DNA of 64,000 nt, from positions 143,219 through 207,218 of the forward strand of contig JAACJG010000001.1 of NCBI GenBank assembly GCA_009917695.1, read 5' to 3'. Under the pieces are notes generated by a model that did no database searches, was not told where the DNA came from, and saw nothing but the letters and a program-made list of their open reading frames with translations. A program made the translations under genes and the position numbers. Positions 8,507 to 47,087 of this stretch are shown piece after piece. Position 1 is the first letter of the stretch. The number at the start of each line of letters is the position of its first letter. This DNA comes from Candidatus Rifleibacterium amylolyticum. GTDB taxonomy: Bacteria > Muiribacteriota > Ozemobacteria > Ozemobacterales > Ozemobacteraceae.

Positions 8507-8523
8507 ACTAACCGGCAGTCTCC

Positions 8524-11776: not shown

Positions 11777-11797
11777 ATCAATTCGTCTCCCTTACTG

Positions 11798-15276: not shown

Positions 15277-15313
15277 GATTTGCCTCGTGTGAGTCAGATT
15301 AAGTTGTCAAGGT

Positions 15314-15760: not shown

Positions 15761-15773
15761 CGAACCATGCCTC

Positions 15774-17768
15774 CTATACGGTCAGGTCAACTGCTTTGAT
15801 ATTCAACGCAGCCCGTCTCAGATTGGGCAGCACATTCTTTCTTATAATCGCTTCAGCAGTGTCGTTACCGCCCGCCTGAATGCGACTGGATCTGTTTTTT
15901 CTGCCAGACATCTGATTCCTGTTACTTTCATCGGGATTTCTCGACGAAATGTCCACAGTTATTTCGGTCAAATTTACACCTTGATTGAGAAGCTGCTCTT
16001 TGATCTGGGGTGCCAGTTCTTCGAGACGTGCTTTGGCAAGGGCACTTTCGGCCGAAATGCGGGCCGATACTGTTCCATCCCTGGAGGTAAGTTCCATTTC
16101 AAGCTTGCCAAGGTCGCCGGGGTCGAGTTCCATGTTGAGAATCTTGCTGCCATTCTCTGTTTTCAGATATTCTGCCTTTTCAAGCATCTGACTGAAAATG
16201 TGAGTGGCGGCCGGAACCGGTGTGGCGGGCCTGGCTGCGCTCATCGAACTTGCGGGAGTGCCGTTGTGTGAAGAGAATCCGTTGCTTCCGTGGCCGGCAC
16301 TGTTGTTGTTCATGGCCGAATGTCGCTTTACCGCTTCAGGAGAGTAGGTTGCCGCTTCTGTAGCCTTTTCTCCGCCCCCAGTTTTTTCTGTGAACAGTGA
16401 AAAGAACTTTTTCGCAGCTTCTTCTACCGCTGCTTTTGCATGCTCAGGGGTTACCGGTTGGGCAGTTGCCGTCTGCATATTGGATTTGTTTGCGAGCACT
16501 GGTTCATCGGCTGTTTCGGCCTGGTCACTCGAGCTGGCTGCTTCGTTGATCGGCTGATTCAGACGCTTGAACTCTTCGCGCAGACTTTCTTCGTTTTTCG
16601 GCTGCTCACTGGTTTCACTGAGCTGGCTGGTTTCGACATTCTTTTCTTTGGTATTTCTCGTGGTTTCGTGACGTTCTGTGTCGCTCGCTGCTTTTTCTTC
16701 AGTCAGGGTTTCGCCTTCGGAATTGTTGGCAACGACTGCATCGGCAGCTTCTACGACTGTTGCCAGTTCAGTCGGGTCGTGACTGACTGCGTGTTCTTCA
16801 CTGTTTTTATCACCTTGTTTCCGCTCGTGCTCGACAACTACAGCCTCTTGAACGATTGTCTCAGAAACGGTCTGAGGCATGCTCTGCTGCGCGTTGGCTA
16901 CTTCGGCGGCTTTCTGCTGATCGGCCAGATTCTGCAGCAATTGCATCAGTTCAGGCGATTCTGCCAGCGTCAGTAACTCGTCCCTGGCTTCTGAATCAGG
17001 CATCGCATCGATCAGTTCACCGAGAACTTCTTTGAATGATTCCGGTGATTCGCTGAGAGCAGCAAGTTCCTGTGGCGAAAGGCCTTGTAGAAATTCGACC
17101 AGGGCAACCTTTTCGTCTTCGGTCAGAGTGCCTGCAAGTTCTTCGACCAGGGCCGCATAATCTAACTTTTTGTCATTTGCGCCGCTGACTTCGGTTTCGC
17201 TGTCAGAAACTCTGTTTGCGCTCAAACTGTCTGCTCCTTCAGTCCCTTCTGCAAGATCAATGGCTTCGCCTGTCGAAGTTTCAGACAGAATCTGTGTTTC
17301 AACCGTGCTTTCGCGTGATGGAAGTGCTTCGTCTCTAACAGAGAGGGTTCCTGATGCGTCAGTTTTGCTCTCGCCATCTTCAGCTATCTTCTCAGGGCTG
17401 TCAGTTGGCTCGCTAGCTACGTTCTGTGCTTCTTTGCCTGTTCTTTCTGAGGCGCTGACATTGTCATATTTGTCTCTGAATGATTCTGCCCGAACATCTT
17501 CTCTGAACTGATCATTGCGCACCGGAATTTCGAATTTTTCCGGACGTTCTGCCAGTAACGGGTTGATTGCAGAGATAGCACTGAAAGAATAGATTCTTGC
17601 ATTGCCGGTCACTTCACCAACCATGTTTTCAGCCGAAGTTGCGCCCAGTTGCTGCTGCAGCAGGCTGAGGAAGTCGCTGGAAGCTGATTTGTCGGTCGCA
17701 CTTTGCTTGTTCTGGGGTAGTTCAAACGTAAAAACCCCGGAAATACCAGCCAAAATGTCATTATTCAT
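15774..17768 (-). CDS. fliK: Flagellar hook-length control protein FliK.
   Basis: The 664-aa protein is acidic and low-complexity, rich in E/S/T/A. The C-terminal Flg_hook domain reads LDPGDLGKLEMELTSRDGTVSARISAESALAKARLEELAPQIKEQL. A strong RBS (GGAGGTG) lies 7 nt upstream of the ATG. Confidence 0.7.
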   Translation of the reverse strand: MNNDILAGISGVFTFELPQNKQSATDKSASSDFLSLLQQQLGATSAENMVGEVTGNARIYSFSAISAINPLLAERPEKFEIPVRNDQFREDVRAESFRDKYDNVSASERTGKEAQNVASEPTDSPEKIAEDGESKTDASGTLSVRDEALPSRESTVETQILSETSTGEAIDLAEGTEGADSLSANRVSDSETEVSGANDKKLDYAALVEELAGTLTEDEKVALVEFLQGLSPQELAALSESPESFKEVLGELIDAMPDSEARDELLTLAESPELMQLLQNLADQQKAAEVANAQQSMPQTVSETIVQEAVVVEHERKQGDKNSEEHAVSHDPTELATVVEAADAVVANNSEGETLTEEKAASDTERHETTRNTKEKNVETSQLSETSEQPKNEESLREEFKRLNQPINEAASSSDQAETADEPVLANKSNMQTATAQPVTPEHAKAAVEEAAKKFFSLFTEKTGGGEKATEAATYSPEAVKRHSAMNNNSAGHGSNGFSSHNGTPASSMSAARPATPVPAATHIFSQMLEKAEYLKTENGSKILNMELDPGDLGKLEMELTSRDGTVSARISAESALAKARLEELAPQIKEQLLNQGVNLTEITVDISSRNPDESNRNQMSGRKNRSSRIQAGGNDTAEAIIRKNVLPNLRRAALNIKAVDLTV

Positions 17769-20337: not shown

Positions 20338-20452
20338 TCGTCGTGTGGCTGGAAGGGTAAAAAAATTGACCTTGGTGGTGGTGTCGTGTTAGCAATTAAA
20401 GTTAAAGACATGAATTAGCTGTAGACAGTTTTTTATGAGGAGCCCCGCGCTG

Positions 20453-22120
20453 ATGAAACGCATTGGTTTATTACTGCTGGTCGCGTTTTTGCTTTCTTTC
20501 TCGCCGGTGTTTGCCGACAATGGCACTTCGATAGTCAAATTTGGTGACCTGCACGGCGAAGTAAATGTGCGACCGAATTCTGAAGACGATGATGCCTATA
20601 TTTTTGCCGAGCTTGCTACGCCGCTGCATCATGATGACCGCATCAAGACTTTGACGCGATCCGGTGCCATTTTGAGTTTCGCTGACATGACGACTTTTGT
20701 GCTCAAGGAAGATACGACGATTGTACTCGACATCGCCAACGAGAAGACCAGCAAAGTTGGTCTTCTGGCTGGAAACATCTGGGTGAACCTCAAAAAGATG
20801 GCAGCTGATGGGTCGCTTGAAGTCGAAATGGGGCAGGCGGTTGCCGGTCTCAAGGGCACCAATATCACCTGCTCGACCAGTAGTGGGGAAGACCGCATTC
20901 AAGTTTTGCGCGGTATTGCCAGCATCTTGATCAAAGAAACCAGAGAGAGAGTCGAACTCAAAGAGGGAGAAGAACTGATAATCAAAAAGGGTGCAAAGCC
21001 TGAGAAAAAAGAGATCGATGTCGCTGCTGAGCAGAAAAAATGGGAAGAAGAAACCTCGCGTCTTGGCGAATCGATAGAGTTGAACGAAATTCCAGATGTT
21101 CTGAAAGGCATTCTTGAATCAGAAACAGCTGAGTTCTCACGCATCAACGAGGCGTTTACGCGTATGCTTGCCCAGACCACGGTTGAAGAAGCCGAAGTTC
21201 TGGAATTACAGAAAGATGCAGAGCGCTTTCTCGGGATAATTCTTGAAGATAATCTGATTCTTGGATCAATGCGCAAAAAGGTTGATCTGGCAATGCAGAC
21301 TCCTGGGTTGCCTGCCGCAGATGCCGTCAGAATAGCCGGCCTGCTGCGCGAGATCGCAGCTGTTCTCGCGCGAGTGCAGGCAAATCAGTCTCAGGCGGCC
21401 AAGATAATACGTTATCAGTTCAAGCTTTCAGCCGTGATAAATGAAGAGTTGCAGACTGAAATTGAGCTCGTCAGCAATGAACTTGCTCAGACCGTATCCG
21501 AGGTTGATGCTGTCCGGGCAGTTATTTCAAGCAATCCGAATGGAAACAGCCAGGACTGGTTCATGGAAGCCCAGCAAACATGCTCGATGGCGCTGGTATC
21601 TCTTGAACCATTGCTTGAGAAAGTCTCCGCTCTTATCTCTGATAATCCGACAAGTATTGAAGCTCAGGCGCTGTTAAAGTCGATAACAGATCAGCAGGTA
21701 ACTATAAGTACACTTATGCGATCTCTGGCAGTAGTGGAAATTGATTCTGCTACAATAACCGAGTTGTCGCAGATAGATGACACATTGTCTGATCAGATAG
21801 TTGTTCTTCAGAACGAAATCACTGCTTATAACGCTTTGTCTGATTCTACCGTAGCCGAAAAAGAAACGCGCTTTGTTTCTTCGGTTAAGATCATGAGTAA
21901 TTTCGCCAAGGTTCGGCGGCAATATACAAATGCCCAGCGCCTTTATGAGACGACAGCCAAGGCTACCAGTTCTTCAAAATTCCGTACAGCCGAAATGGAT
22001 GAAGTAGACAGTGTGTACAATAGAATCACCGATAATTTTCAGCAGCTTGGTATCGCTGCTGAGGAATTAGAGCTCAACATTCGCGATCTCGAAAGTCAGT
22101 TGAGCACATATCTGAAGTAA
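20453..22120 (+). CDS. Secreted FecR-like-domain protein with a long coiled-coil C-terminal region (paralog A).
   Basis: The signal peptide reads MKRIGLLLLVAFLLSFSPVFA. The FecR-type beta-domain reads VKFGDLHGEVNVRP...HHDDRIKTLTRSGAILSF...TIVLDIAN...GNIWVNLKK. It is followed by about 350 aa of heptad-like helical sequence. The track starts at the ATG at 20435. The second ATG at 20453 has GAGGAG 10 nt upstream, and the same arrangement occurs in the paralog. Confidence 0.55.
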   Translation: MKRIGLLLLVAFLLSFSPVFADNGTSIVKFGDLHGEVNVRPNSEDDDAYIFAELATPLHHDDRIKTLTRSGAILSFADMTTFVLKEDTTIVLDIANEKTSKVGLLAGNIWVNLKKMAADGSLEVEMGQAVAGLKGTNITCSTSSGEDRIQVLRGIASILIKETRERVELKEGEELIIKKGAKPEKKEIDVAAEQKKWEEETSRLGESIELNEIPDVLKGILESETAEFSRINEAFTRMLAQTTVEEAEVLELQKDAERFLGIILEDNLILGSMRKKVDLAMQTPGLPAADAVRIAGLLREIAAVLARVQANQSQAAKIIRYQFKLSAVINEELQTEIELVSNELAQTVSEVDAVRAVISSNPNGNSQDWFMEAQQTCSMALVSLEPLLEKVSALISDNPTSIEAQALLKSITDQQVTISTLMRSLAVVEIDSATITELSQIDDTLSDQIVVLQNEITAYNALSDSTVAEKETRFVSSVKIMSNFAKVRRQYTNAQRLYETTAKATSSSKFRTAEMDEVDSVYNRITDNFQQLGIAAEELELNIRDLESQLSTYLK

Positions 22121-22258
22121 TTTCAAATCATGTGAGATACCTGCGTCTATTCTATAGCGATTTGAGAATCGCTGGATTAAAGTCATTGCGAGGAACGAAG
22201 TGACGAAGCAATCCCAATGACGTGAGTTTTGCAGGTCACTTAAACTGTGTCTCTTAAG

Positions 22259-22285
22259 TCTGCCCGATCCGGGCAGATTTTTTTA
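22259..22285 (+). terminator. Rho-independent terminator downstream of paralog A.
   Basis: TCTGCCCG-ATC-CGGGCAGA is a perfect 8-bp stem, followed by TTTTTTT. Confidence 0.6.
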
Positions 22286-22418
22286 TCATGACCTTCGATG
22301 CCTCACTGGGTAGGATCCATATTTTTCTTGACCATATAATGTAGACCATGGTAACAACAAATGTTTAAGTTGCACTCTATAAGCCAGAAAAGATGTTTTT
22401 TTGAGGAGTTTCGGAATT

Positions 22419-24122
22419 ATGAAGCGGATTGGTCTTTTGTTGTTGCTGATGACCTTTGTTTTTTCTTTGTCACCCGGTTTTGCTCAAAACGAGTCCACTA
22501 TCGTCAAGTTTGGTGATCTGCATGGTGAAGTTAACGTCCGCCCTGATAGTGAAGATGATGATGCCTATATTTTTGCCGAACTGTCTACACCTTTGCATCA
22601 CAACGACAGAATCAGAACGCTGACTCGTTCTGGTGCCATTCTGAGTTTTGCTGATATGACAACTTTTGTCATGAAGGAAGATACTACTATCGTTCTTGAT
22701 ATCGCCAATCAGCGTGAAAGCAAAATTGGTCTGGTGGCCGGGAATGTTTGGGTCAACCTCAAAAAGCTGGTGGCTGATGGTTCGATGGAAGTCGAAATGA
22801 GTCAGGCTGTTGCCGGTATCAAAGGCACTAATATTACCTGTTCGAGCAATCCGCAGGCTCAGGAAGACCGCGTAAAAGTTCTGCGCGGCCACGCACGGGT
22901 TCGCGTTAAAGCAACCAATGAAGAATTCGACGTTGAAGAAGGCGAAGAAATCGTTATTAAGCCAGAAACCAAGCCGGAAAAGCTTCAAATCGATATTGAC
23001 GTCGAGCAGAAGAACTGGGAAGAAGATCTTTCCAGGCTTGGCGAATCACTCGATATCGACGATCTCCCGGAGATCCTCAGAAATATCAATGAATCGTCGG
23101 CAGCTGAATTTGGCAGACTCAACGAAACATTTCAGGCTCTAATGGGCATGGAAAAGGTCGAACTTGCCGATGCGGCAGCGTTGCGAACTTCAGCCGAGCG
23201 GTTTGTCGGTGTTGTTCTTGAAAACATCCTCATTCTTAATAACTCACGCCGTCGAGTTGATGTTGCTATGGGGGTAGAAGGACTGACCGATGAACAGAGG
23301 GCGCAGCTTAACTCACTGACGAGAGAGATCGCCACTGCGTTAGCCAGTCAGCAAACCTACCAGACTGAAGCATCGCGCATGATGCGCTATCAGTTCCGAA
23401 CATCTGCCATCAGTGAAGAATTCCAGGCCGAACTCGAAATAATCCGCACCGAACTGGCTCAGATCGTTGGCGACCTCGACTCTATTCGCGCAATTATCTC
23501 AGGCAACATCAGCGGCCAGACCCAGGACTGGTTCACTCAGGCTCTTGATGAGTGCAATCAGGCGCAGATACGTCTTACTGATCTGTCGCAAAGAGTTGCG
23601 TCAATCATTTCCGAAGAGCCGACGAATCCAGATGCTCAGGCCCTGGTTAAGTCTATTGCAGATCAGCAGGCATCAATTCCTGGAATGCTTAAATCTCTCA
23701 CGGTAGTAGAGGTAGATACAGCTACCATAACTGAGATGCAGCAGATCGAGTTTGAAATTTCTGAAGCAATTGTAACGCTTGAACAGGGTATTCGCGATTA
23801 CAACAGCATCTCAGCCAGTCCTGTATCTGCCGCAGTCTCTAGAGCGACTATTATTGAACAGGAAGCACGATTGAAGGCATCGATTGCAATCATGAGTAAT
23901 TTCGCTAATGCCAGACGACTTTACCAGAAGGCACAGCGGAAATATGACTCAACAATGCGTTCAACTGCCGGTTCTGGAGTAAGAACCGGTGAACAGGAGG
24001 AAATGGATGCCCTGTGGATGAACATAAGCGACCGCTTTCAGCAGCTTGGAGTTGTTGCAGAAGAATTGCAGCAGCATATCCAGGAACTCGAAGACGATCT
24101 TAACTACATGCTTAATCGATAA
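22419..24122 (+). CDS. Secreted FecR-like-domain / coiled-coil protein (paralog B of the previous protein).
   Basis: It aligns visibly residue by residue with the 20453..22120 protein (VKFGDLHGEVNVRPDSEDDDAYIFAEL...TLTRSGAILSFADMTTFV...). The signal peptide reads MKRIGLLLLLMTFVFSLSPGFA. The track starts at the TTG at 22401. Confidence 0.55.
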   Translation: MKRIGLLLLLMTFVFSLSPGFAQNESTIVKFGDLHGEVNVRPDSEDDDAYIFAELSTPLHHNDRIRTLTRSGAILSFADMTTFVMKEDTTIVLDIANQRESKIGLVAGNVWVNLKKLVADGSMEVEMSQAVAGIKGTNITCSSNPQAQEDRVKVLRGHARVRVKATNEEFDVEEGEEIVIKPETKPEKLQIDIDVEQKNWEEDLSRLGESLDIDDLPEILRNINESSAAEFGRLNETFQALMGMEKVELADAAALRTSAERFVGVVLENILILNNSRRRVDVAMGVEGLTDEQRAQLNSLTREIATALASQQTYQTEASRMMRYQFRTSAISEEFQAELEIIRTELAQIVGDLDSIRAIISGNISGQTQDWFTQALDECNQAQIRLTDLSQRVASIISEEPTNPDAQALVKSIADQQASIPGMLKSLTVVEVDTATITEMQQIEFEISEAIVTLEQGIRDYNSISASPVSAAVSRATIIEQEARLKASIAIMSNFANARRLYQKAQRKYDSTMRSTAGSGVRTGEQEEMDALWMNISDRFQQLGVVAEELQQHIQELEDDLNYMLNR

Positions 24123-27999: not shown

Positions 28000-28030
28000 G
28001 CGGCAAGGCAACGATCGTTTCCGGTTGTAA

Positions 28031-28073
28031 CAACACCCCGCAGCGGCACAGTCGCTGCGGGGTGTTGTTTATT
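28031..28073 (+). terminator. Rho-independent terminator ending the FecR-OMP-lipoprotein operon.
   Basis: CAACACCCCGCAGCG-GCACAGT-CGCTGCGGGGTGTTG is a perfect 15-bp stem, followed by TTTATTG. Confidence 0.55.
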
Positions 28074-28145
28074 GTCATCGCGAGGCATCCGCAGGATGCC
28101 GTGGCGATCTTATCGAAATAGATGTGCTGTGGAGATGTCTTTATC

Positions 28146-28319
28146 TCAATGCAGATTGTTAGAGTCGAGCCCGCCCGGAAAAGATGCTTCGGTAAGGATT
28201 TCCTGAATGATCTGCAACGCGCCGGGAGTGACCTTTTTGCTGGTGGTTGATTCAAAGCGACTGACGAAGGTATCGAGATTGGTGAGAATGAAATAGGCTT
28301 CGTTCTGGTTCAGTTTCAT
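28146..28319 (-). CDS. Small hypothetical protein of 57 aa.
   Basis: An in-frame ATG at 28319 has a canonical AGGAGG 7 nt upstream and gives MKLNQNEAYFILTNLDTFVSRFESTTSKKVTPGALQIIQEILTEASFPGGLDSNNLH. The longer track ORF starts at a TTG upstream. I recognise no domain. Confidence 0.3.
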   Translation of the reverse strand: MKLNQNEAYFILTNLDTFVSRFESTTSKKVTPGALQIIQEILTEASFPGGLDSNNLH

Positions 28320-28611
28320 GCCCGGGCCTCCTGTAAAATGTACATTTTTTTCGCTATCTTTAATACTTATCGACAATCCGCTCCCCAAAGTTTAGCTTTT
28401 TTGTAATCTTCTGTTATTCGTCATCCTGCGCGTCAGTCGCAGGATCCAGTAATGGTGGTATAAACATGGATTCTGCGACTTCGCGCTGAACGACTGAGAT
28501 AAGGCAAAGTCTTCTCTCTGATATCGGTTTGAAATCTCATATTATGTTTCTGCCTCGGACTTTCTTCGTGATTTTGTGGCTTAGTGCGAGTTTTCTTTGC
28601 GGCTGTCAAAA

Positions 28612-28661
28612 AGATTGTCTGTTGCGGGAGCGGGGAATTATGTATAGAATAGCGACAATCT
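28612..28661 (+). promoter_or_regulatory. Candidate sigma-70 promoter flanked by an inverted repeat, upstream of the HAMP sensor gene.
   Basis: The -35 element TTGCGG (28622..27) is followed by a 17-nt spacer and the -10 element TAGAAT (28645..50). It is flanked by AGATTGTCTGTTG at 28612 and GACAATCTGTTG at 28654, which form inverted GATTGTC/GACAATC arms with a shared TCTGTTG motif. This could be an operator. The reading is sequence-only. Confidence 0.25.
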
Positions 28662-28681
28662 GTTGTTTTTGATGAGGAATT

Positions 28682-29884
28682 ATGGCTTCACAAGATGAAA
28701 AATCAGGCAAGATCGCCTGGTATAGAAGAATTGGTAACCGAATCGTTCTCACGGCTATTGTTGCGGCAGTCCTGCCGCTATTTCTCCTGGGTGGCACTGT
28801 GGCGGTAAAAGTTCGTCTCGATCTCGTTCAACAGACGCTGACTTCTCAGAAAAATACCATGATGTCACTTCTGCATGGCTTTGGTTCGTTGTTTCAAAAC
28901 TATCGCAGACAGATTGAGTCTATGGTTGCCCTGCCCGACATTCAGTCAATGCGCCATGAGCGCCAGATTAAGATTGTTCATGACTTTCTCGATCAGCAGA
29001 AAATCTATTTTGGCTGCAATATTTACGATCGCGAAGGCAGAAAAATCCTGAGCGCAGTTCGCAATGACCAGGATTTTGGCAAAACTCCCGCTACTGGAAC
29101 CATCGATTTTGCCGGCGATCCTGCCTATGGGCAAAGCTTCAGAAATGTCGTCAAAACCCGCCAGGCCGCCATGTTCGCCAACGACGCTACTGAACTGAGT
29201 GAAAAAAAACTGTTTCTCATGGTTCCGATCAGCGACTTCGTAAATCCTGAAGAGGTTGTTGGTGTCATCAGCTGTTCGATAAGTATTTCTTCTCCGGATA
29301 TTCATGAGATAGTCTGTGGATTTCCGATCGCTGAAAGCGACATTCTGATTCTTCTCGACCGCCATGGCAATATCCTTTCTTCACAAGGTCATCTGCCCGA
29401 GGGTTTGCGTGCTATAAATGTCGAAAAGGTTTCCCGTAAAAAGATTGAGAATATTCTGCTCGACCTCGTCGGGACGACCTATCTTGGCACAATTGCTGCT
29501 CTGCCCGGTTCAGAAGGTCTTTTGCTGGTCGCGCGGCCCAGACATCTCGTTCTGGCGTTTCTCAATCAGTTGCTTCTCGATCTCGCGCTGATGCTGGTTG
29601 TGGCATTTGTAATTGCTGTGGCTGCCGGCTTTTTCATGTCGCGTTCCCTGGCCGAAGGTATAAGTATTCTGGTCGATGCCATACGAAATGTCGCCAGCGG
29701 CGCAGTAAGCCATCGCGTCGATCTCAGAGGCGAAGACGAGCTGGCTGAAGCGGCACAGGCTTTTAACGATATGCTCAATACTCTTGAAAAACATCGCATG
29801 ATGGATGATATCTGGCATCAAGAATGGGAATCGGCGCAAAAGAAGGCAGAGGGCGATTCCAGTCCGGAGGCCAGCTCAAGGTGA
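28682..29884 (+). CDS. Membrane sensor with a periplasmic Cache-like domain and a cytoplasmic HAMP domain but no output domain.
   Basis: TM1 reads IVLTAIVAAVLPLFLLGGTVAV. It is followed by an extracytoplasmic domain of about 250 aa. TM2 reads LNQLLLDLALMLVVAFVIAVAAGFF. The HAMP domain reads SRSLAEGISILVDAIRNVASGAVSHRVDLRGEDELAEAAQAFNDMLNTL. The ORF ends 40 aa later. Confidence 0.6.
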   Translation: MASQDEKSGKIAWYRRIGNRIVLTAIVAAVLPLFLLGGTVAVKVRLDLVQQTLTSQKNTMMSLLHGFGSLFQNYRRQIESMVALPDIQSMRHERQIKIVHDFLDQQKIYFGCNIYDREGRKILSAVRNDQDFGKTPATGTIDFAGDPAYGQSFRNVVKTRQAAMFANDATELSEKKLFLMVPISDFVNPEEVVGVISCSISISSPDIHEIVCGFPIAESDILILLDRHGNILSSQGHLPEGLRAINVEKVSRKKIENILLDLVGTTYLGTIAALPGSEGLLLVARPRHLVLAFLNQLLLDLALMLVVAFVIAVAAGFFMSRSLAEGISILVDAIRNVASGAVSHRVDLRGEDELAEAAQAFNDMLNTLEKHRMMDDIWHQEWESAQKKAEGDSSPEASSR

Positions 29885-32658
29885 CCGAGAATGTTGTCAT
29901 AGCACCCGTCCAAAACGGCATTGCCCGCCGCGAAAACCTGCCGCATCTGGTGGCCGGCTTTTTCATGCTGCTCAAGGCGAGTAACAACCTGCTTTATCTT
30001 TCTGTTCTCACCACTTTTCTCGACAATATCGGTGCTGGCTCACTACCCTGGGTTTATCTGTCAGTTAATGTGGTTTTTATCGTTTTTCAGTTTCAATTCA
30101 TGTCGAGAATTGTCGGTTATGAAGGGCACTGGTTACTCTCTCTGGTTAACTGGCCTGCCGCCGCCCTGTCTTTTGCGGCCGCCCTGATGTTTCCGGCCAA
30201 TACTATGCCGGTGTTGCTGGCATTTCTGGTGATGGCAATGCTGATCGATCTTGTGTCGACTCAGGCTTTTACGGCTATGCTGAACCATTTCTTTTCAGTT
30301 GCCGAGTCGCGCCGGTTTACTCCGGTGATATATGCTTCTGGCAGCTTTGGCTTCATTATCAGCGGTCTGCTGCTCAAATTTGTGCTTGATTTTGTCGGGA
30401 TAAGGGGTCTGCTTGTCGGAAATGGCGCAATTATCCTGGTGTCGGCAATAATTCTGCGACTTCTCAAGCCAATAGAAGAGGCGCGACTGGCCGAGTCAGA
30501 CGAAGCAGATCAGCCAGTCTCGACGGCAGGCGGGGAACAATCAACAGGTGAATCTTCCTGGCAGCACCCGTTGGCAAGGCTTCTCAATATCTCTTCCTTT
30601 CTTATCCTTTTCAACAAATATCTCGTGGATTTCTTGTTCGCAGCTGCTGTTGCGGCCTATTTTACCAGGGGAAACGACCTGGCTGCTTTTATGGGAGTGT
30701 TTGGCGCTTCTGCCGATTTTGCCGTTATCGGCCTGCAGACCTTTGTCATGCACCGGGTTTTCGCTGCCTTTTCCATCGGTAAAATTCTCGCAGCCATGCC
30801 CCTGGTGCTGACTGTGCTCTGCTTTTCAGCTTCCTTCAGTCTCAAGTTCGCCGTCATTGCTACGGTGCAATTTCTGGTGCTGCTGAACAGCAAAAACTTT
30901 ACGGTGCCGGCCACCACCATTCTCATGGGCGTAATCCCTCAGAAACAGCGGGTATATTATCGTCGCGACATGTCTATCGTCTGCTCGATTTCTTCAACTC
31001 TGGTTGGCATTTTTCTTCTGCTGGTGCGAAATTCCGTCGGGGCCGAGGTGCTTTTTCTGATCGCCGCCGTTGTCTATCTCGCCCTGTCGGCAGTTCATTA
31101 TCTTATCGATCAGGCTTATTTGACCACCCTGCGTCGGGCGATAGATAACCGTCAGCTGGATTTTGGCGAAGATCAGGTCGCTTCGTTGCGCTTTTTGCAA
31201 TATGGTGAGCGCCTGCAGCAGTTGCAGCAGCTGCTCATCGATGAAAACCCCAGAATCAGAGGGCGTGCGGTTGAAGAGGTCTCGTTGCTGCCAGCAAATA
31301 CTGCAACTCAATTACTGCTGCCTATGCTCGAAAACGAGAACGATTCGCGTTGTCTGACTGCGGTTGCTCGTAACCTGCTTCAGATCTCACCACAGGCCGC
31401 GGCAATGCACATTCGACGAGTTCTTGCCGAAACCGATGATCAGCGCTTGCGGGCAGATATTATCGAAACTATCGGCAAGGTTCGAGCGCCAGACGTTGGC
31501 GAAGATTTTGTTACGCCATTTCTCGATTCGCCGCATCATCGGGTGAGAGCCAGCGCTATTATCAGCACCATCAGACTGACCCGTCAGTCCGACATGCTGT
31601 CGCGTGCCATGCATAAGCTGGCGGCTATGGCACATGATGCCGAAGAGCTTATGCGTGCTTCGGCCGCAGCTGTGATGGGAGAACTCGGGCTGCCTCTTTT
31701 CGTCCCGGCTCTTGTCGCCCTTGCCGGTGCCGGCGAAACAGTCGTTGCCGGCAACGCTGCTTCAGCACTGGCGCGAATTCATACCCCCGATGCCGTGGTT
31801 GCACTCGAAAATATGCTTTTTCATGAAAACCAGGAGGTGACAGAACGGGTTGAGGGTTTGCTGGCTGCTTCTACGCGGGAGAGTATCAGTCGAATCAGCC
31901 GCCTGTTGCCCGGAATAACGGCAGAAGAACGTCGCCGGCTGACGACCCGTTTGCGCTCAGGCCGTCACCAGGACAGCCAGGAAGTTCTGGCCAACATTCT
32001 CTGTATTGATAATCTTGAGCAGCGGCGCAATCTTATTGCTCTGCTCGAAAAGTCAGACCGCGAAATGGTCAGGCTGATGCAGGCCTGTATAAAAATGGGA
32101 GAAGACGACAGGATACAGCTGACAGTTGAACCATTACTGCTGCTGGCCAGAGAATATGCTGGCAGCAATATGCCGGACTGGGCTGCTCTGCTCGGTATTC
32201 TGGCCGGCGGTACGCTTGAAAAGCCTGAAGATAACGAAGAATTGTTTGAAGCTGCCTGCAGTCTTATTAAAATGTTGTGGTACGAGCGCATTGTCATTGC
32301 AAAGGCCGGCGTCATTGCAGCAGCCAGGGAAAAATGGCAGAACCGCGCTTTGTCGCTGATCAGAATGATTGCCTGCTTTTCATCCGAGCCGGCACCGTTG
32401 AGCAGAAGCATCAACGAGCTCAAGAGCGGAAAAGCCTACGCCAGAGGAATGGCGGCAGAGTACATTGATGCCCGCGCAGGTCACAAGCTGGCGCAGATGA
32501 TTATTCCACTGGTCGATTCCGGGGCTGCTGTGCCTGATGATTTTGCGGCTCTGGTAAGGTTTGCTGCCGGGCTTGGCGTCGAAGCCTCTGAAAATGATCT
32601 GACCGCTGCCCGCGACCGGTTGTTACGATTTGCTGTCATCGAGGAAAACGACAAATGA
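29824..32658 (+). CDS. Polytopic (about 12-TM) permease-like N-terminal domain fused to C-terminal PBS-lyase-type HEAT repeats. The membrane part may be related to TLC/NTT-type or MFS-type transporters.
   Basis: Roughly 12 hydrophobic helices in residues 40-440 are followed by repeated HEAT-like units (NPRIRGRAVEEVSLL..., HHRVRASAIISTIRL..., AEELMRASAAAVMGELGL...). The track start at ATG 29824 overlaps the upstream gene by 61 nt. An in-frame GTG at 29881 overlaps its TGA stop (GTGA), and either start is possible. The stop of this gene overlaps the next start (ATGA). Confidence 0.55.
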   Translation: MGIGAKEGRGRFQSGGQLKVTENVVIAPVQNGIARRENLPHLVAGFFMLLKASNNLLYLSVLTTFLDNIGAGSLPWVYLSVNVVFIVFQFQFMSRIVGYEGHWLLSLVNWPAAALSFAAALMFPANTMPVLLAFLVMAMLIDLVSTQAFTAMLNHFFSVAESRRFTPVIYASGSFGFIISGLLLKFVLDFVGIRGLLVGNGAIILVSAIILRLLKPIEEARLAESDEADQPVSTAGGEQSTGESSWQHPLARLLNISSFLILFNKYLVDFLFAAAVAAYFTRGNDLAAFMGVFGASADFAVIGLQTFVMHRVFAAFSIGKILAAMPLVLTVLCFSASFSLKFAVIATVQFLVLLNSKNFTVPATTILMGVIPQKQRVYYRRDMSIVCSISSTLVGIFLLLVRNSVGAEVLFLIAAVVYLALSAVHYLIDQAYLTTLRRAIDNRQLDFGEDQVASLRFLQYGERLQQLQQLLIDENPRIRGRAVEEVSLLPANTATQLLLPMLENENDSRCLTAVARNLLQISPQAAAMHIRRVLAETDDQRLRADIIETIGKVRAPDVGEDFVTPFLDSPHHRVRASAIISTIRLTRQSDMLSRAMHKLAAMAHDAEELMRASAAAVMGELGLPLFVPALVALAGAGETVVAGNAASALARIHTPDAVVALENMLFHENQEVTERVEGLLAASTRESISRISRLLPGITAEERRRLTTRLRSGRHQDSQEVLANILCIDNLEQRRNLIALLEKSDREMVRLMQACIKMGEDDRIQLTVEPLLLLAREYAGSNMPDWAALLGILAGGTLEKPEDNEELFEAACSLIKMLWYERIVIAKAGVIAAAREKWQNRALSLIRMIACFSSEPAPLSRSINELKSGKAYARGMAAEYIDARAGHKLAQMIIPLVDSGAAVPDDFAALVRFAAGLGVEASENDLTAARDRLLRFAVIEENDK

Positions 32659-33545
32659 AGATAACAATTTTTATAGTAACGCTGCTTGTCATTTTGATGC
32701 CGATTGGCTGGTTTGCAGCCTCAGATTCTGAAATGCTGCATCTTACTCCGATAATTGACGAGGTTTCGCCTCTATATATGGGCGTAATTCCTTTCATTCA
32801 GGCCGACAAACTTCGCGAACAGACGCAGCCGGTCGGTGACTATCTGGCATATCGTATCGGACGACCGGTCAGGCTTATCACTGTGCCTGATTACGAAAGT
32901 CTGGCCCGCCTGCTCGAACTTGGCAAAATTCATATTGCCTGGTTTTCGCATGCTTCGCTTGAAAAGCTGCGGAGAAACCGCGACTGGCAGGTTGTCTGCC
33001 GTCCGGTTCAGTATAACAGCGTGCTTTATAACGGGCAGATAATAGTACGTGATGACAGCCCATATCAGAGCGTGCATGATTTGCGCGGTCGCCGATTTGC
33101 CTATGTCGATAGATTTTCCGGGTCAGGATTTTACTTTCCCAATCTGCTTTTTGCCGCTGAAGGAATAAGGCCACTGGAATTTTTCAGCAATGTCGAATTC
33201 TCGCAAAGCCATCGCTCAAGTCTGCTGGGAGTGATGGAGGGAAGGTATGACGCGGCGGCTGTGTTCTCTTCTGACCTGGTATCTGAAGGCAGCAAAGGCC
33301 TGCGTGTCATCGCCCGCACCGGTCCTATTCCTAACGATCCGCTTGTTGTGCGTTCTGACATGGGTTCTGAACTTAAATCTCAGATAGAGAAAGCCATGTT
33401 GACAATGCACGAAGACGAAAAGGGTATTGCCTGTCTTAAAAGTCTCAAAGTCTTGCGCGGCACCACAAAATACGTTGCTGAAAGCGAAGTGCAGGCTCTT
33501 CTCAAAAAATCCACCTCGCCAGATCAACCAGCCGCCGACAGATAA
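32655..33545 (+). CDS. PhnD/SsuA-like periplasmic substrate-binding protein of the phosphonate ABC-type family. It is used here apparently without cognate permease or ATPase genes.
   Basis: A signal/TM anchor is present (KITIFIVTLLVILMPIGWFAA). A PhnD-like core is present (LYMGVIPFIQADKLREQTQPVGDYLAYRIGRPVRLITVPDYESLARLLELGKIHIAWF...YNGQIIVRDDSPYQSVHDLRGRRFAYVDRFSGSGF). Confidence 0.6.
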   Translation: MKITIFIVTLLVILMPIGWFAASDSEMLHLTPIIDEVSPLYMGVIPFIQADKLREQTQPVGDYLAYRIGRPVRLITVPDYESLARLLELGKIHIAWFSHASLEKLRRNRDWQVVCRPVQYNSVLYNGQIIVRDDSPYQSVHDLRGRRFAYVDRFSGSGFYFPNLLFAAEGIRPLEFFSNVEFSQSHRSSLLGVMEGRYDAAAVFSSDLVSEGSKGLRVIARTGPIPNDPLVVRSDMGSELKSQIEKAMLTMHEDEKGIACLKSLKVLRGTTKYVAESEVQALLKKSTSPDQPAADR

Positions 33546-33573: not shown

Positions 33574-34713
33574 GTGGTAGAATGCAGCACTATGAAAAAC
33601 ACTGAAATTCCTTTTTTTCTTGGATACGTCGAACAGGCAATTGGTGGAGCCCAGGATCCTCTGAATCCGCCGATTTCGATCAGCAGAAACGGCACTCTTG
33701 CCAAATGGCGCGGCAAACTCAATTTCATCGATCTCAGGGTCAACGACCCGGCACTCAAAAAAAATGCTGCAGCCTTTGAACAGACTCTTCAGAAGGCCGC
33801 CTCTCTCGAAATCAAGGTTGTCATCACATTGCCAGAGTTCTCGCCGGTCTACTTCGATCTCCCGCCTGAGCCAGAAATCCCGGATCCAAAGCGTCCGGCG
33901 CCGCCGCCGCCTCGTGGAACCATCAAAGATAAACGTCTGACTCACTTCAAGCCGGCTTATCTTGCTTTGCCGTCTGCAATTCAGGGACACCCCTCATACT
34001 ACGCTCTGTCGGTCGAAGAGTGTCTGCCAATAATTGAACTGGCCGCAAAATATGAGGTTAAAGACGTTATTGTTCCTGTTTCAGAACCAGGTGTTTTTCT
34101 TGATCCACAGGCCGAAATCAGATTCAAGAAGGCTTTAAAGGAACTTCACGCAGCTGCTTCCGCTTCATCGATAACACTGCATCTGCGCAATGGCGGTATT
34201 TCACTTTCTGTTTACCGCAAGCTGGCGCGTGAATTTGGCTGTAAATTTGCTTATGATGTTGGAATAGCGCATCTCGAAGGCGATAATATTCTCGACACTT
34301 ATCATAAATTAGATGGCAACATTTCTATTATTTCTTTGCAGCAGGTGTTGCCGGGGCTGGATAAATACAGTGGTCGGCGCGAAGCAATGGATCGGGCGCT
34401 TAAAGAGTATGTCGCCGCCCGCAACGAATACCGTCAGAGCCTGAAAGAAAACGACGAAGGCTATAGCGAAAAGTGCCTCAAGCAGTTTAATTTTGCGCTC
34501 AAGGATTATCAGGAAGCCCGCCGCAATAGCTGCTTCAATCTCGGCTTGTATCAGAGCGGCGATCTCAACCTGGTGCCGTTGCTCAAGGAAATTCGTCGCA
34601 GTATCGAGGCTGGCAGCGAAAAACATGTGCTTCTGGCCATGGTTCCCAATACCCGTAATAATGATTTTGTTGTGCAGAAGGTTGCGCCTGAAAATTTTTC
34701 GGGCGCGTTTTGA
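33574..34713 (+). CDS. Hypothetical protein. It may have a TIM-barrel (xylose-isomerase-like) fold, but this is very tentative.
   Basis: The track ORF starts at GTG 33574, and an ATG at 33592 (MKNTEIP...) is more likely. Alternating beta-alpha-like segments are present (KVVITLPEF, VKDVIVPVSEPGVFL, SITLHLRNGG, FAYDVGIAHLEGDN). A Pro-rich insert is present (PEPEIPDPKRPAPPPPRG). Confidence 0.4.
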   Translation: MVECSTMKNTEIPFFLGYVEQAIGGAQDPLNPPISISRNGTLAKWRGKLNFIDLRVNDPALKKNAAAFEQTLQKAASLEIKVVITLPEFSPVYFDLPPEPEIPDPKRPAPPPPRGTIKDKRLTHFKPAYLALPSAIQGHPSYYALSVEECLPIIELAAKYEVKDVIVPVSEPGVFLDPQAEIRFKKALKELHAAASASSITLHLRNGGISLSVYRKLAREFGCKFAYDVGIAHLEGDNILDTYHKLDGNISIISLQQVLPGLDKYSGRREAMDRALKEYVAARNEYRQSLKENDEGYSEKCLKQFNFALKDYQEARRNSCFNLGLYQSGDLNLVPLLKEIRRSIEAGSEKHVLLAMVPNTRNNDFVVQKVAPENFSGAF

Positions 34714-39907: not shown

Positions 39908-42853
39908 ATGAGCAAGTCAGGTTTTTATGCTGCCATAAAATCAGTTTTTATTGCTTCTTCAAGCTCAAAGGCACAGGAAACTGTGCGAACAGGCCTGATT
40001 TTCGGCTTCATAATTGCATCCTTATCGCTTTTGCTCCTGATGACGGGTGTTTACAACGAAGTCGACACCTATGTTAATACCATGGTCATGCAGATGGCCA
40101 TTGAAGACAAAGAAGAGATGCATCCACGAATATGCATAGTAAAAAAGGATCAGGCTACTTCAGAGCTGCTTGAAAAAAATCCAGATCGTGCCGAGTTTGC
40201 TTCGTTGTTCAGGTTTCTTGGCCAGCCCCAGATAATCCAGCGGCCACATGGCGGAGCCGGAAGAGGCCTTCGTGTGCTTGACATCGGCATTGGTTGTTTC
40301 ACCGACCTCAAGGACCTCCCCTTTAAAACAGGTTATGACGAGTGGGGTTCGTTTGCCGATTTTTCAGATCAGGCTTCGGCTACTCATATCGAGAAATTCG
40401 ATCAGCGCAACTGGCATTCCAGCAGCCGCCGGGTGCGCGATTATTTTAAGGCGAACCCTGATGCAGAAACTTTCTCTGGCTTGATCCAGGTCCGCAGCTA
40501 TCTATGGAACCCGCTTGCCAAAAATGCCTTTACAGCATTGGCTGGTGGTGGCCAGTATCTGGTTCTACCAACTTTGGCTACGCGCTGGGATGATCCTGAG
40601 CTGAAAAAATACCTGCAGAATTTAAGCGACAAAAATAACAGTACGGACAATGCGCCGCCTGCAGGCATTGCTGAAAGTATCGAGCTGCTTAACCGTTGGC
40701 AGAATCTATTTGACAATCTAAATCGCATCGATGTTGATCTTCACATTGTGATGTTTGAAAAGCCTGGAGTTTTGCTCAGCATTTCTCTGGACCTGGTGGT
40801 TGACCCGCCAACTCCAGAGTATATTATCGAGCCTGCTTCTGTTATTGGCTTCGACTTTGTCCTCCAGGGCGAGAAGTCTGACGCCGTAGACAATGCACTG
40901 GTTGCTGCGATTGAATCAACTGAAAGTCAGGTGGTTCTGGCGGCTCATACCGCACTGGAAGAAGATGCGAGAGATTATTCGCAGGAAAGCAAAACTGGTG
41001 ATGACGCCTTTGCCCTTGGTAGAAAAGCTTCTGCGGTTATGCGCCATATCATGCCACATGAGAAGTTTATCAAAGGCAACGCCATGACGGCTGTCATCGA
41101 CATTGCACTTGGCAGCAAGAGCTTTGTCACCATGGTGCCGATGTTTATTGCCAATCATCAGGAAAAACGGCTTATACCTTCATTCAGTCTCAAGATTGCG
41201 ATGCTCGAACTCGACCGATGTCACCCAGAGCTCAAGCCATCTTATAGCGAAGAGATGAACAGAGTACTCGCGGCGATATATGACGACGTTGCTTCAGGCA
41301 AGTTTCGTGGACCTCTGACAATTCACGATCGCAGTATCCCGGTTGACAGTCGTGGCATGATGCTTATTGACTTCTACGGTTCTACTTCTGTCGGTCGCTA
41401 CAGATGGCCCCGCATCGGATCAGTTTCTCTGTATGAATGTCTGGATGAGAAAACACTCAGACGCCTGTTAAAGAAGATGCCCGAGAAAAACGAGCTCGAT
41501 CCAATCAAGGCGCATTCCAGAACTCTTTACGGAGGCATGAACAGCTTCAATAAATCTGAACGTATAATGCTGGTCGGCCCTTTTGAAATCACCGATTTCG
41601 ACTATTTCCCGACTCCCATGGAGCTGTATACCCCCTATAGAGCGCAGAAAGAACAGTTGATGGGTATTGAAATTCATGCCAACGCCATCATCAATATCCT
41701 TGATAAGCTTTATATAAAACATCCAAATGGTTATCACACGGCTTTTGCTCTCTTCGTATCCTGTATTCTTCTCGGTTTCATTCTCGACATTCTGACGCCA
41801 GTCGCCGGCTTCTTTCTTGTCGTTGCTTTCATGGGCGGCGCTTTCTGGCATTCATTCAACTCCTATCATTATGCGCGCCAGATGTTTAACAGCTCGGCTC
41901 TGCTGTTCAGCTACCCGGCCATCTGGGCGATCGCGACCCTGACCAACTACGTGCGCCAGCGCGCCCGCGCCCAGAAGACCAAAGACATGTTTTCGCGCTT
42001 CGTCGCGGCTGACGTCGTGCAATACATGCTCGACAACCCCGACATGGTTAAGCCGGGCGGAGAAAAGGTCGAGTTGACCATTTTCTTCTCTGACGTCGCC
42101 GGTTTTACTTCGATTTCTGAGGCTCTGACCCCTGAAGAACTCGTCGTTCTTCTTAATGAATATCTCGGCGCCATGACCGATCTGCTCTTCGAATACGGGG
42201 GCACCCTCGACAAATTCATCGGCGACGCAGTAATGGCCTTCTGGAACTTTCCGCGCAAACAGGAAGATCACGCGGTTCGCGCTTGTCTATGTGCTCTGGC
42301 CATGCAGCGCAAGATCAACGAGCTGCAGATCGGCTGGGCGGAAAGAGGCCTGCCGCGGGTTTCTGCACGTGCCGGCCTGAATACGGCAAACGTGGTTGTC
42401 GGCTATATGGGTTCTTCAAAGGCGCAGATGAACTTCACCTGTATGGGCGATGGCGTCAATCTCGCCTCCCGTCTTGAAGGCGCCAACAAAGAATACGGCA
42501 CGGCAATGATGGTGAGTGACGCTACTTTCCAGAGGGCAAAACATGCGGTTGTCGGCCGATTTCTCGATTTTCTTGCCGTCAAAGGAAAAAAGGAACCGGT
42601 CAAGGTGCACGAGCTTGTTTGCGAAGTCGGCAAAGAACCGCCGGGCTGGAACGAGCTGATCGAACTTTACAATCGCGCGATTCAGCTGCATCTCGAACGC
42701 AAATGGGATGAAGCCATCGCGACCTTCGAACAGATTCTCGCGCGCTGGCCGGATGATGGGCCCAGTCGCACCTATATTGCGCGCTGCAACGAGTACAAAG
42801 AGAACCCGCCCCCCGAAGGATGGGACGGCAGGTATATCCTTACCCACAAATAA
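39908..42853 (+). CDS. CHASE2-sensor class III adenylate/guanylate cyclase with a C-terminal TPR-like segment.
   Basis: An N-terminal TM is followed by a large extracytoplasmic CHASE2-like domain. Three TM helices span residues about 600-680. The CYC catalytic core reads VELTIFFSDVAGFTSISEALTPEELVVLLNEYLGAMTDLLFEYGGTLDKFIGDAVMAFWNFP...GLNTANVVVGYMGS...NFTCMGDGVNLASRLE. Confidence 0.8.
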   Translation: MSKSGFYAAIKSVFIASSSSKAQETVRTGLIFGFIIASLSLLLLMTGVYNEVDTYVNTMVMQMAIEDKEEMHPRICIVKKDQATSELLEKNPDRAEFASLFRFLGQPQIIQRPHGGAGRGLRVLDIGIGCFTDLKDLPFKTGYDEWGSFADFSDQASATHIEKFDQRNWHSSSRRVRDYFKANPDAETFSGLIQVRSYLWNPLAKNAFTALAGGGQYLVLPTLATRWDDPELKKYLQNLSDKNNSTDNAPPAGIAESIELLNRWQNLFDNLNRIDVDLHIVMFEKPGVLLSISLDLVVDPPTPEYIIEPASVIGFDFVLQGEKSDAVDNALVAAIESTESQVVLAAHTALEEDARDYSQESKTGDDAFALGRKASAVMRHIMPHEKFIKGNAMTAVIDIALGSKSFVTMVPMFIANHQEKRLIPSFSLKIAMLELDRCHPELKPSYSEEMNRVLAAIYDDVASGKFRGPLTIHDRSIPVDSRGMMLIDFYGSTSVGRYRWPRIGSVSLYECLDEKTLRRLLKKMPEKNELDPIKAHSRTLYGGMNSFNKSERIMLVGPFEITDFDYFPTPMELYTPYRAQKEQLMGIEIHANAIINILDKLYIKHPNGYHTAFALFVSCILLGFILDILTPVAGFFLVVAFMGGAFWHSFNSYHYARQMFNSSALLFSYPAIWAIATLTNYVRQRARAQKTKDMFSRFVAADVVQYMLDNPDMVKPGGEKVELTIFFSDVAGFTSISEALTPEELVVLLNEYLGAMTDLLFEYGGTLDKFIGDAVMAFWNFPRKQEDHAVRACLCALAMQRKINELQIGWAERGLPRVSARAGLNTANVVVGYMGSSKAQMNFTCMGDGVNLASRLEGANKEYGTAMMVSDATFQRAKHAVVGRFLDFLAVKGKKEPVKVHELVCEVGKEPPGWNELIELYNRAIQLHLERKWDEAIATFEQILARWPDDGPSRTYIARCNEYKENPPPEGWDGRYILTHK

Positions 42854-46527: not shown

Positions 46528-47087
46528 ATAGTGTGCCCGGCATGGGCGATAACTCGGCGGTGCAAGTCCGCTACAGGCTTGGCAGCAGGAACTGTTAGCC
46601 AAAGGCAAGGGTGTCCACCGTGAGGTGGAATCTGAAGGAAGCCGGAGGCAAACCCTCGGCCCGATGAACAAGAACCGTATATAAGGCACTACGTGACTGG
46701 ACGAGCTTGCTATACAAAGCAAAGTCCGATACTGCCCGAGGTCTGCGGTGTAGATACGGCGGGTATATGAGGGGAAAGTTATCGTTCTTACCCGGGGAGA
46801 TCTTGTAGTGGTCGCCGACAAGAGGGATGGTTAGACAACCCACAGCGACAGGTGGGGCAGCAATGCCCCACTGAACTACAAGAAGTCAGCAGAGGCCATA
46901 GTAACGCGGCGATGCGCGAAGGGCCGAACAATGGTTAATCTTCGATCGTATGGATGGCGTGATGACGCAACGACTGCCGAATACTGTTCCAACAGGCTAC
47001 CTCTGCAATGATACGGTGGAACCGGAAAGTAACAGAGGAGCGCATAGCGCCGTTATACCAAAAATCGAAAAAAAAATCGAAACGAAG

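Follow-up and report, generated by a model that had tools for sequence, protein, structure and literature searches.

Introduction

Proteins in which a carrier of the NTT type is fused to a HEAT domain (NTT-HEAT), and related proteins that carry an additional cyclic-nucleotide-binding domain (NTT-HEAT-cNBD), were described by Major, Embley & Williams in 2017 (PMC5381601). These fusions are broadly conserved and monophyletic and have no assigned function, and it was suggested that their HEAT and cNBD domains adjust transport (PMC5381601). Their distribution is widespread and includes cyanobacteria, Chlamydia and oomycetes; the later literature adds no function for them. A second described system of relevance here is AioX-AioS, a documented precedent for a binding protein of family PF12974 that signals to a Cache-type sensor. 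In this work we analyzed a stretch of 64,000 nucleotides (referred to as the window) of Candidatus Rifleibacterium amylolyticum, corresponding to positions 143,219 to 207,218 of contig JAACJG010000001.1, and focused on three adjacent genes, named g1, g2 and g3 and together referred to as the trio. They encode a dCache-HAMP receptor without an output domain, a divergent NTT-HEAT protein and a PhnD-type binding protein, respectively. The phylum to which this bacterium belongs, Riflebacteria, has been noted for its many genes of unknown function. All parts of the trio come from known families, and fusions of the NTT-HEAT kind have been described before; the conserved three-gene association appears to be undescribed, and we found no description of it in the literature.

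Results

The three genes form a conserved and translationally coupled unit

The trio is located at positions 28682-33545 of the window and consists of three co-oriented open reading frames (ORFs), all on the plus strand (Table 1). The junction between g1 and g2 has the sequence GTGA, in which the stop codon TGA of g1 (29882-84) overlaps an in-frame GTG at position 29881. This GTG is preceded by GGAGG at 29867-71, and a start of g2 at this position matches the public annotation (925-aa product P0001, 100% identity and coverage). The g2/g3 junction is an ATGA overlap (32655-58). Across the trio loci identified in this work, overlapping stop and start codons were present at 21 of 29 g1/g2 junctions and at 27 of 30 g2/g3 junctions. 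The tight coupling of the three ORFs, noted in a preliminary description of this DNA, was therefore borne out by the overlaps in the window and by their recurrence at most junctions elsewhere.

A scan in which each species was represented by a single genome identified 30 loci. Gene g1 was found upstream of g2 in all 27 loci for which upstream DNA was available, and g3 was found downstream of g2 in all 23 loci with downstream DNA, always in the same order and on the same strand. The lowest identities among these 30 loci were 34% for g1, 36% for g2 and 44% for g3. At loci of the Rifleibacteriaceae type a larger block, extending from FecR genes through a CHASE2 cyclase gene, is syntenic too, and adjacency of the three genes in these loci is therefore uninformative by itself. 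At loci of the Ozemobacteraceae type this wider synteny (up3, up2, up1 and g4-g8) is gone and the trio alone is retained. The trio also recurs, with unrelated flanks, in most of the sampled lineages in which g2 shares only 22-30% identity. Thus, the full trio is present at the loci encoding P0055, P0059, P0070, P0085 and P0114 (g2 25-30% identical), where a HAMP gene of 380-394 aa, usually with a dCache_1 match, lies immediately upstream of g2 and a Phosphonate-bd gene of 290-305 aa immediately downstream, again within unrelated flanks. At the P0104 locus the HAMP gene and g2 are present, and the contig ends about 90 bp past g2, within a 32-aa ORF fragment. At locus L035 a Ser/Thr kinase gene (1658-3148, minus strand) is situated divergently upstream.

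In the reverse test, a g1 profile searched against JGI metagenomes identified 12 full-length g1 relatives, and g2 was the next gene in nine of the ten that had enough DNA. The sole g1-type gene not followed by g2 (L049, 3667-5705) precedes a DUF6079 fragment and an AAA_21/AAA_15 ATPase gene in a defence-island-like setting, pointing to an insertion or to a contig of chimeric origin. All named trio members belong to Riflebacteria/Ozemobacteraceae, except for a metagenome-assembled genome (MAG) named 'Deltaproteobacteria bacterium RIFOXYA12' and two oddly labelled bins. The latter two contigs, L005 (SABV01000008.1) and L030 (DYKG01000016.1), are labelled Erysipelotrichia and Candidatus Methylomirabilis and carry a Riflebacteria-type trio with the extended synteny, probably as a result of mis-binning or mislabelling. 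Together, the neighborhood searches show the order g1-g2-g3 in all loci of the genome scan as far as the contigs extend, and at most of the distant homologues sampled. The three genes thus constitute a unit that is conserved, coupled in translation and lineage-typical for Riflebacteria.

g1 encodes a double-Cache receptor that ends after its HAMP domain

The HAMP domain of g1 was identified at residues 318-369 (Pfam E 4e-10; 40 bits, cut-off 25). The match to dCache_1 was weak and remained under the Pfam cut-off (19.9 bits, cut-off 45). In the AlphaFold2 model (pLDDT 78), a long TM1/stalk helix is followed by two alpha/beta Cache modules and by a second transmembrane (TM) helix that continues into HAMP AS1; AS2 and a short extension come next. 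Accordingly, the segments can be delimited as TM1 (~16-46), a periplasmic double Cache (~106-288) and TM2 (~288-324), and g1 thus has a periplasmic double Cache between two TM helices followed by HAMP, the arrangement that characterizes this class of receptors. Foldseek searches with the model retrieved the dCache ligand-binding domains of chemoreceptors and kinases (Tlp3, Mlp24 and PscC; E ~1e-8), as well as full-length models of McpB and McpC at 1e-12.

The polypeptide stops 31 residues past HAMP. Its last structured residues form a conserved tail, LEKHRMMDDIWxxEW (368-382), and this motif, including W378, is kept in relatives of only ~25% identity. No output domain was found after HAMP in g1, in its 39 homologues or in more distant relatives, all of which contain only HAMP with or without dCache_1. 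The 39 homologues are 221-411 aa long and the full-length ones 366-411 aa. Mean pairwise identity in the orthologue set was 0.71-0.78 for TM1, TM2, HAMP and the tail, versus 0.47-0.54 for the Cache modules. We also considered that g1 might be a truncated pseudogene; this was ruled out by its conserved length and tail motif. Because the same length and the same C-terminal motif are found in every lineage, g1 is not a decayed gene. The proposal that the first gene encodes an extracytoplasmic sensor with HAMP and no output hence applies to all homologues, and the sensor can now be specified as a double Cache.

g2 encodes an NTT-type carrier domain fused to an alpha-solenoid

The AlphaFold2 model of g2 (pLDDT 82, 41 homologues) consists of 12 TM helices, a disordered central loop and an alpha-solenoid spanning residues ~430-916. 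The solenoid comprises ~490 aa. It produced a clear Pfam match to HEAT_2 (E 1e-14, 55 bits, cut-off 27.7), matches to NblB/CpcE-type families, and matches to alphaRep/HEAT proteins in the PDB. A HEAT signature was detectable only at ~445-675, and residues 676-916 are helical and gave no repeat or family match. Hence, of the earlier assignment of 12 TM helices and about 500 aa of HEAT repeats, the TM domain and the length of the solenoid stand, and the HEAT label applies to the ~445-675 portion only. Based on the 12 TM helices and the K/R-rich even-to-odd loops we infer that the solenoid is cytoplasmic.

As for the TM domain, the Pfam match to MFS_1 was sub-threshold (18-20 bits, cut-off 33.4). 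Searches of the PDB with the full-length g2 profile retrieved designed and natural HEAT proteins only, and the TM-only profile produced no PDB matches. At the structural level the best Foldseek match of the model was Arabidopsis NTT1 and, in a separate structural comparison, the best match was Chlamydia NTT1; the 12-TM MFS-type fold is thus closest to that of solved NTT structures. The model resembles outward-open MFS structures and has very short periplasmic loops. Conservation within g2 is highest in the TM domain (pairwise identity 0.57-0.65 versus 0.29-0.49 for the solenoid), and across 41 orthologues the helices of this domain contain the invariant polar residues K32, N35/N36, Y39, D123, Q128, N135, K166, N245, D250, D279, Q286 and N336-S-K-N339.

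A profile restricted to the TM domain of g2, searched against 1.84 billion cluster representatives, yielded 1811 matches at E<=1e-3, mostly proteins of 850-1130 aa. The profile reaches P0116, P0123 and P0142 at E values of 1e-17 to 1e-22. These three proteins and P0171 contain TLC above the Pfam cut-off together with HEAT_2 and cNMP_binding. Alignment of the g2 TM alignment to those of TLC-HEAT-cNMP proteins by hhalign gave a probability of 99.9% (E 1e-35, 386 columns). g2 therefore combines NTT-type TM homology with a C-terminal HEAT fusion (PF13646 / PF02985), the two features of the NTT-HEAT clade and, judged by its sequence, it belongs to the NTT-HEAT fusion family, of which it is a divergent representative. 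The assignment of the preliminary description, a transporter-like 12-TM domain, is in this way confirmed in homology and fold and narrowed to a defined family, as opposed to a generic MFS.

The g2 proteins of the trio clade have no cNMP_binding domain, and more distant relatives do have one. In a rough neighbor-joining (NJ) tree, the trio members verified by gene context are in one half, which comprises ~90 representatives at 50% identity, and the TLC-cNMP and cyanobacterial proteins are in the opposite half. HAMP and PhnD neighbors were absent at the three relatives sampled outside the trio clade (Nostoc NTT-HEAT P0224, P0164 and P0113). Downstream of the gene for P0123, a TLC-HEAT-cNMP protein, there is no PhnD-like gene; on the upstream side the neighborhood is cut off by the contig end. 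The unusually long relatives P0079, P0110, P0171, P0196 and P0198 contain HEAT, TLC or cNMP domains only.

g3 encodes a PhnD-type binding protein without ABC partners

The g3 product matches Phosphonate-bd (PF12974) with an E value of 3e-58 (197 bits, cut-off 27) and TIGR01098 with a score of 166.7 (cut-off 112), and it remains under the cut-off of the PhnD equivalog TIGR03431 (140.6, cut-off 261.1). Among proteins of solved structure its relatives are PtxB, ArrX, AioX and PhnD, with E values of 1e-12 to 1e-15 (AioX 1e-12, ArrX 2e-14), and weak matches to the TAXI/NMT1 families were observed in addition. At its N-terminus the protein has one hydrophobic segment (aa 1-25), and it lacks a lipobox; it is exported and probably anchored to the membrane by this N-terminal helix. 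No gene for an ABC permease or ATPase was present among the ORFs of at least 200 aa across the 64-kb window, and none was found beside the trio in the other loci inspected. Both elements of the original assignment, a phosphonate-type binding protein and the lack of an ABC partner nearby, were thus corroborated by the PF12974 match and the 64-kb scan.

GpxB, a member of the PhnT family, binds glycerol phosphates (PMC12718374). Residues S98, Y125, S155-G-S157 and H186 of g3 are at the exact spacing of the phosphate-head ligands of GpxB, a correspondence based on spacing and motifs and not on superposition, and they are largely conserved across the g3 orthologues, with Y125 replaced by His in a few. 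This mapping of the oxyanion-head residues is suggestive.

Upstream region, adjacent genes and surroundings of the trio

The region 20-70 bp upstream of g1 contains an inverted repeat with 11-nt arms (28609-19 / 28654-64; 10 of 11 positions complementary), which is real but modest, and its arms enclose the sequence TTGCGG-17-TAGAAT. A promoter flanked by an inverted repeat had been proposed here. The repeat is present and lies in a conserved block; TTGCGG-17-TAGAAT is promoter-like and was not called as a promoter by the consensus scanner. The block of ~80 bp is kept in five related MAGs (L001, L009, L002, L003 and L004). Conservation of the right arm of the inverted repeat is limited to the three closest sequences, with the window among them, and a direct CTGTTG repeat in the block is kept in nearly all six (in L003 only the second copy is intact). 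The 680-bp non-coding gap ahead of g1 (28000-28681) contains a second inverted repeat (28435-48 / 28467-80; 14 nt, 93%). In related MAGs this gap contains a (TCGTAA)n microsatellite (L001 ~480-540, L009 ~8700-8790, and L004) that is absent in the window.

Downstream of the trio, g4 is present in Rifleibacteriaceae-type loci and in L012; the remaining Ozemobacteraceae-type loci and the distant loci lack it. No relatives of g4 were found in Pfam (also at E<=10), NCBIfam or the PDB. A strong terminator-like hairpin is located at the end of g4 (34683-34707), and in the lineage of the window g4 is probably part of the same transcription unit as the trio. We considered g4 as a member of the module and rejected it: because it is lineage-specific, it is outside the conserved core.

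On its upstream side the trio is accompanied by two tandem genes for FecR-domain proteins (20435-24122), and on its downstream side by a gene for a CHASE2 adenylate/guanylate cyclase (39908-42853); both are syntenic in Rifleibacteriaceae-type loci. At the distant locus L038 the module is flanked by a FecR gene and a CHASE2-kinase gene. Further away, the window contains a flagellar cluster on the minus strand (337-17768) encoding a MinD/FlhG-like ATPase, FlhA, FlhB, FliR, FliP, FliO, a FliN/CheC-like protein, FliM, a 914-aa FlgE-like hook protein and FliK; a group II intron (46614-48439) with Rfam matches to D1-D4 and domain V/VI and an RVT_1 reverse-transcriptase ORF (46950-47957); two adjacent genes on the minus strand (53205-62724) for giant proteins of 1535 and 1616 aa that consist nearly entirely of TPR repeats; and a gene for a GH57 branching enzyme.

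A secreted GlpQ-like glycerophosphodiester phosphodiesterase (GDPD) is encoded in convergent orientation 0-4 kb downstream of the trio in eight Ozemobacteraceae-type loci (Table 1), and such a gene is absent from the window.

Table 1. Positions of the trio and adjacent features in the window, and of related features at other loci (positions are those of the DNA named in the second column).
Feature	DNA	Position	Strand	Description
Upstream block of g1	window	28609..28681	+	inverted repeat, promoter-like element, ribosome-binding site region GAGGAA
g1	window	28682..29884	+	ORF, 400 aa, membrane receptor without output domain
g2	window	29881..32658 (ORF open from 29824)	+	ORF, 925 aa
g2 N-terminal permease domain	window	29881..31200	+	12-TM, MFS fold, NTT/TLC-type homology
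g2 C-terminal alpha-solenoid	window	31201..32658	+	probably cytoplasmic, HEAT_2/PBS-lyase-type in part
g3	window	32655..33545	+	ORF, 296 aa, PF12974 binding protein
g4	window	33592..34713	+	373 aa, no family match
GDPD gene	L016	13790-14707	minus	
GDPD gene	L021	5006-5932	minus	
GDPD gene	L022	4204-5114	minus	
GDPD gene	L023	14334-15260	minus	
GDPD gene	L024	14333-15259	minus	
GDPD gene	L025	14029-14865	minus	
GDPD gene	L028	14554-15456	minus	
GDPD gene	L032	5226-6152	minus	
PhnD-HAMP pairs	L058, L060, L062, L069, L071, L072, L076, L080, L081, L085-L089			
PhnD-HAMP pairs	L092, L096, L097, L099-L101, L105, L112, L113, L121, L123			

Discussion

A possible receptor-controlled carrier

The preliminary description named three observations that would speak against a joint system: lack of conservation of the trio as a unit, lack of transporter homology, and an output domain overlooked in g1. 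The analyses presented above revealed none of these, and they support that description in its general idea. We tentatively propose that the three products form one inner-membrane complex in which the permease is controlled from the periplasm. In this proposal g3, exported and tethered, would bind a solute with a tetrahedral phosphorus-type oxyanion head, which may be a phosphonate, phosphite or organophosphate judging from its conserved residues. By analogy with AioX and AioS, liganded g3 would dock on the double-Cache domain of a g1 dimer. The g1 dimer would pass the signal on via TM2 and HAMP, and it would contact either the TM bundle or the HEAT solenoid of g2 non-covalently. For g2, fold and homology are those of an NTT-like MFS-fold carrier, and it would be expected to transport an anionic, probably phosphorylated solute, with its HEAT solenoid serving as a regulatory platform. 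Compared with the sister clades this would represent a swap of inputs, the fused cyclic-nucleotide-binding domain being replaced by the separate periplasmic pair of g1 and g3.

Several lines of evidence are in agreement with this proposal. As g1 ends after HAMP, only non-covalent contact is possible as its output; and because g2 is always adjacent and g1 has no output domain, g2 is the obvious receiver of the signal. The strong conservation of the TM helices and the tail of g1 fits a permanent partner. Models and sequence indicate a complementary topology, with Cache and binding protein in the periplasm, and HAMP and HEAT solenoid in the cytoplasm. The presence of a cNMP domain in the sister clades and its absence in the trio clade lead us to read the solenoid as a platform for interchangeable inputs. 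Gating via HAMP-HEAT contacts, as put forward in the preliminary description, is a hypothesis. NTTs are carriers of nucleotides and phosphate. Both this property of the carrier family and the oxyanion-head residues of g3 are weak pointers to a phosphorylated anion, and the GDPD neighbor may hint at an organophosphate ligand; glycerophosphate is a candidate because GpxB binds glycerol phosphates.

Other observations weigh against the proposal. The Pfam model for NTT/TLC carriers, TLC (PF03219; TCDB 2.A.12), gave no match to g2 even at E<=10. Among 150 relatives that were inspected for a g1-g2 fusion none was found. In the rough NJ tree the P0113 clade, which is without the trio, is nested among trio clades, and strict monophyly is therefore not established. 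The gene order also differs from that of the PhnD-HAMP pairs discussed below, in which the binding protein precedes the sensor, whereas the order here is g1-g2-g3. Finally, at locus L038 (P0139) the HAMP gene and g2 are kept and the third gene encodes a 756-aa Ser/Thr kinase (8711-10981). This indicates that g3 is not indispensable and that the output could be signalling and not transport.

The same components could also constitute a binding-protein-dependent secondary transporter analogous to TRAP, TAXI or TTT systems, in which g3 hands its ligand to an outward-open g2, and g1 is an accessory resembling DctQ/TctB. That g3 feeds g2 directly is equally compatible with the data as HAMP-HEAT gating. 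Such a transporter would account for the tripartite layout of binding protein, 12-TM carrier and small 2-TM protein; for the g2/g3 overlap being the most conserved junction (27 of 30); for the weak similarity of g3 to TAXI/NMT1, families that serve secondary transporters; for the apparent membrane anchor of g3; and for the likeness of the g2 model to outward-open MFS structures. The GlpQ-like GDPD gene downstream in eight loci, together with the ligands of GpxB, is in line with it as well. We nevertheless consider it unlikely, as it leaves unexplained both the full dCache-HAMP architecture and conserved tail of g1 and the kinase that replaces g3 in L038. Moreover, g2 has very short periplasmic loops and no DctM/TctA match, and we know of no MFS or NTT carrier that operates with a binding protein.

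The kinase in L038 would be accommodated if the trio were a signalling-only 'transceptor', in which g2 is a non-transporting scaffold and g1 with g3 switches the recruitment of cytoplasmic effectors, for example Ser/Thr kinases or cyclases. Scaffolding of interactions is typical of HEAT solenoids, and UhpC, a carrier turned sensor, provides a precedent. Ser/Thr kinase genes adjoin the g1-g2 pair both in L038, on the same strand and in the place of g3, and in L035, and FecR and CHASE2 signalling genes recur near the module in the window and in L038. However, no effector gene is consistently linked to the trio across lineages, the TM domain and not the solenoid is the best conserved part of g2, and the invariant polar network inside its helices is what would be expected for an active carrier; a transceptor in this strict sense therefore seems improbable to us. 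It is very improbable that the three genes have no joint function, being neighbors by mere inherited synteny or, in the case of g1, the remnant of a decayed kinase or chemoreceptor. The much larger syntenic block within Rifleibacteriaceae could be taken in that sense, but the trio survives at 22-30% identity with all flanks different, its junctions overlap, and g1 is constant in length and C-terminal motif in every lineage. The transporter and transceptor schemes and the receptor-controlled carrier that we propose are not mutually exclusive.

With its separate and tightly linked regulatory inputs, the trio clade offers a tractable route to the function of the HEAT domain of NTT-HEAT proteins, and the trio is also a lead into the biology of Riflebacteria. 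If the receptor-controlled carrier is true, a HAMP domain acting on a carrier purely via protein contacts would be a new output mode, and the use of a binding protein by an MFS-fold carrier would extend binding-protein-dependent transport and sensing beyond ABC, TRAP and TTT systems. An extension of our proposal that we regard as doubtful is that the trio represents a new class of membrane machine, in which a HAMP domain without covalent output uses its conserved tail to gate the solenoid of an NTT-type carrier, and a PhnD-type binding protein feeds or informs this carrier. It would then provide the first MFS/NTT carrier linked to a binding protein, as well as the first role for an NTT-HEAT HEAT domain, that of a docking platform for interchangeable sensors (a cNMP domain or a HAMP receptor).

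Comparison with described systems

With the NTT-HEAT fusions, g2 shares a two-domain plan in which an NTT-like carrier of 12 TM helices precedes a HEAT_2 solenoid, and the homology spans the whole TM domain. It differs from them in that it is missed by the Pfam TLC model, has no cNMP-binding domain, and is encoded in every case behind an output-less dCache-HAMP gene and in most cases ahead of a PhnD-like gene.

The systems AioX-AioS and ArrX-ArrS resemble the trio at its periplasmic side: g3 belongs to the same binding-protein family, is likewise an orphan, and is encoded together with a Cache-type membrane sensor. Unlike those sensors, g1 has no kinase or other output, and a carrier-HEAT gene is inserted between the sensor and binding-protein genes. 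A related arrangement was observed in the metagenomes, where a PhnD-like gene lies directly upstream of a HAMP sensor gene in at least 28 of ~67 loci with g1-like HAMPs (Table 1). These PhnD-HAMP pairs look like a widespread class of binding-protein-dependent sensors, analogous to AioX/AioS. The HAMPs most similar to that of g1 often belong to such pairs, and because PhnD-type proteins are commonly paired with HAMP sensors, the link from g3 to g1 has precedent. In contrast to g1, the sensors of the pairs have short periplasmic domains and enzymatic outputs, which were GGDEF-EAL or histidine-kinase (HisKA-HATPase(-REC)) in all eight sensors scanned, and no permease is associated with them.

In TRAP, TAXI and TTT systems, too, a binding protein is combined with a secondary carrier of 12 TM helices and with a small protein in the membrane. 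The likeness is one of layout only: neither g2 nor g1 matched the DctM/TctA and DctQ/TctB families in Pfam, the small subunit of the trio is a full dCache-HAMP receptor, and its carrier has a 490-aa cytoplasmic solenoid.

Finally, in SRII-HtrII, DctA/DcuB-DcuS and UhpC-UhpB a polytopic protein is in non-covalent communication with a HAMP-type protein of two TM helices in the membrane, as would be the case for g2 and g1. In those pairs the HAMP protein holds the output, which is a kinase or a chemoreceptor signalling domain. As g1 has none, the signal in the trio would have to flow in the other direction, towards the polytopic partner.

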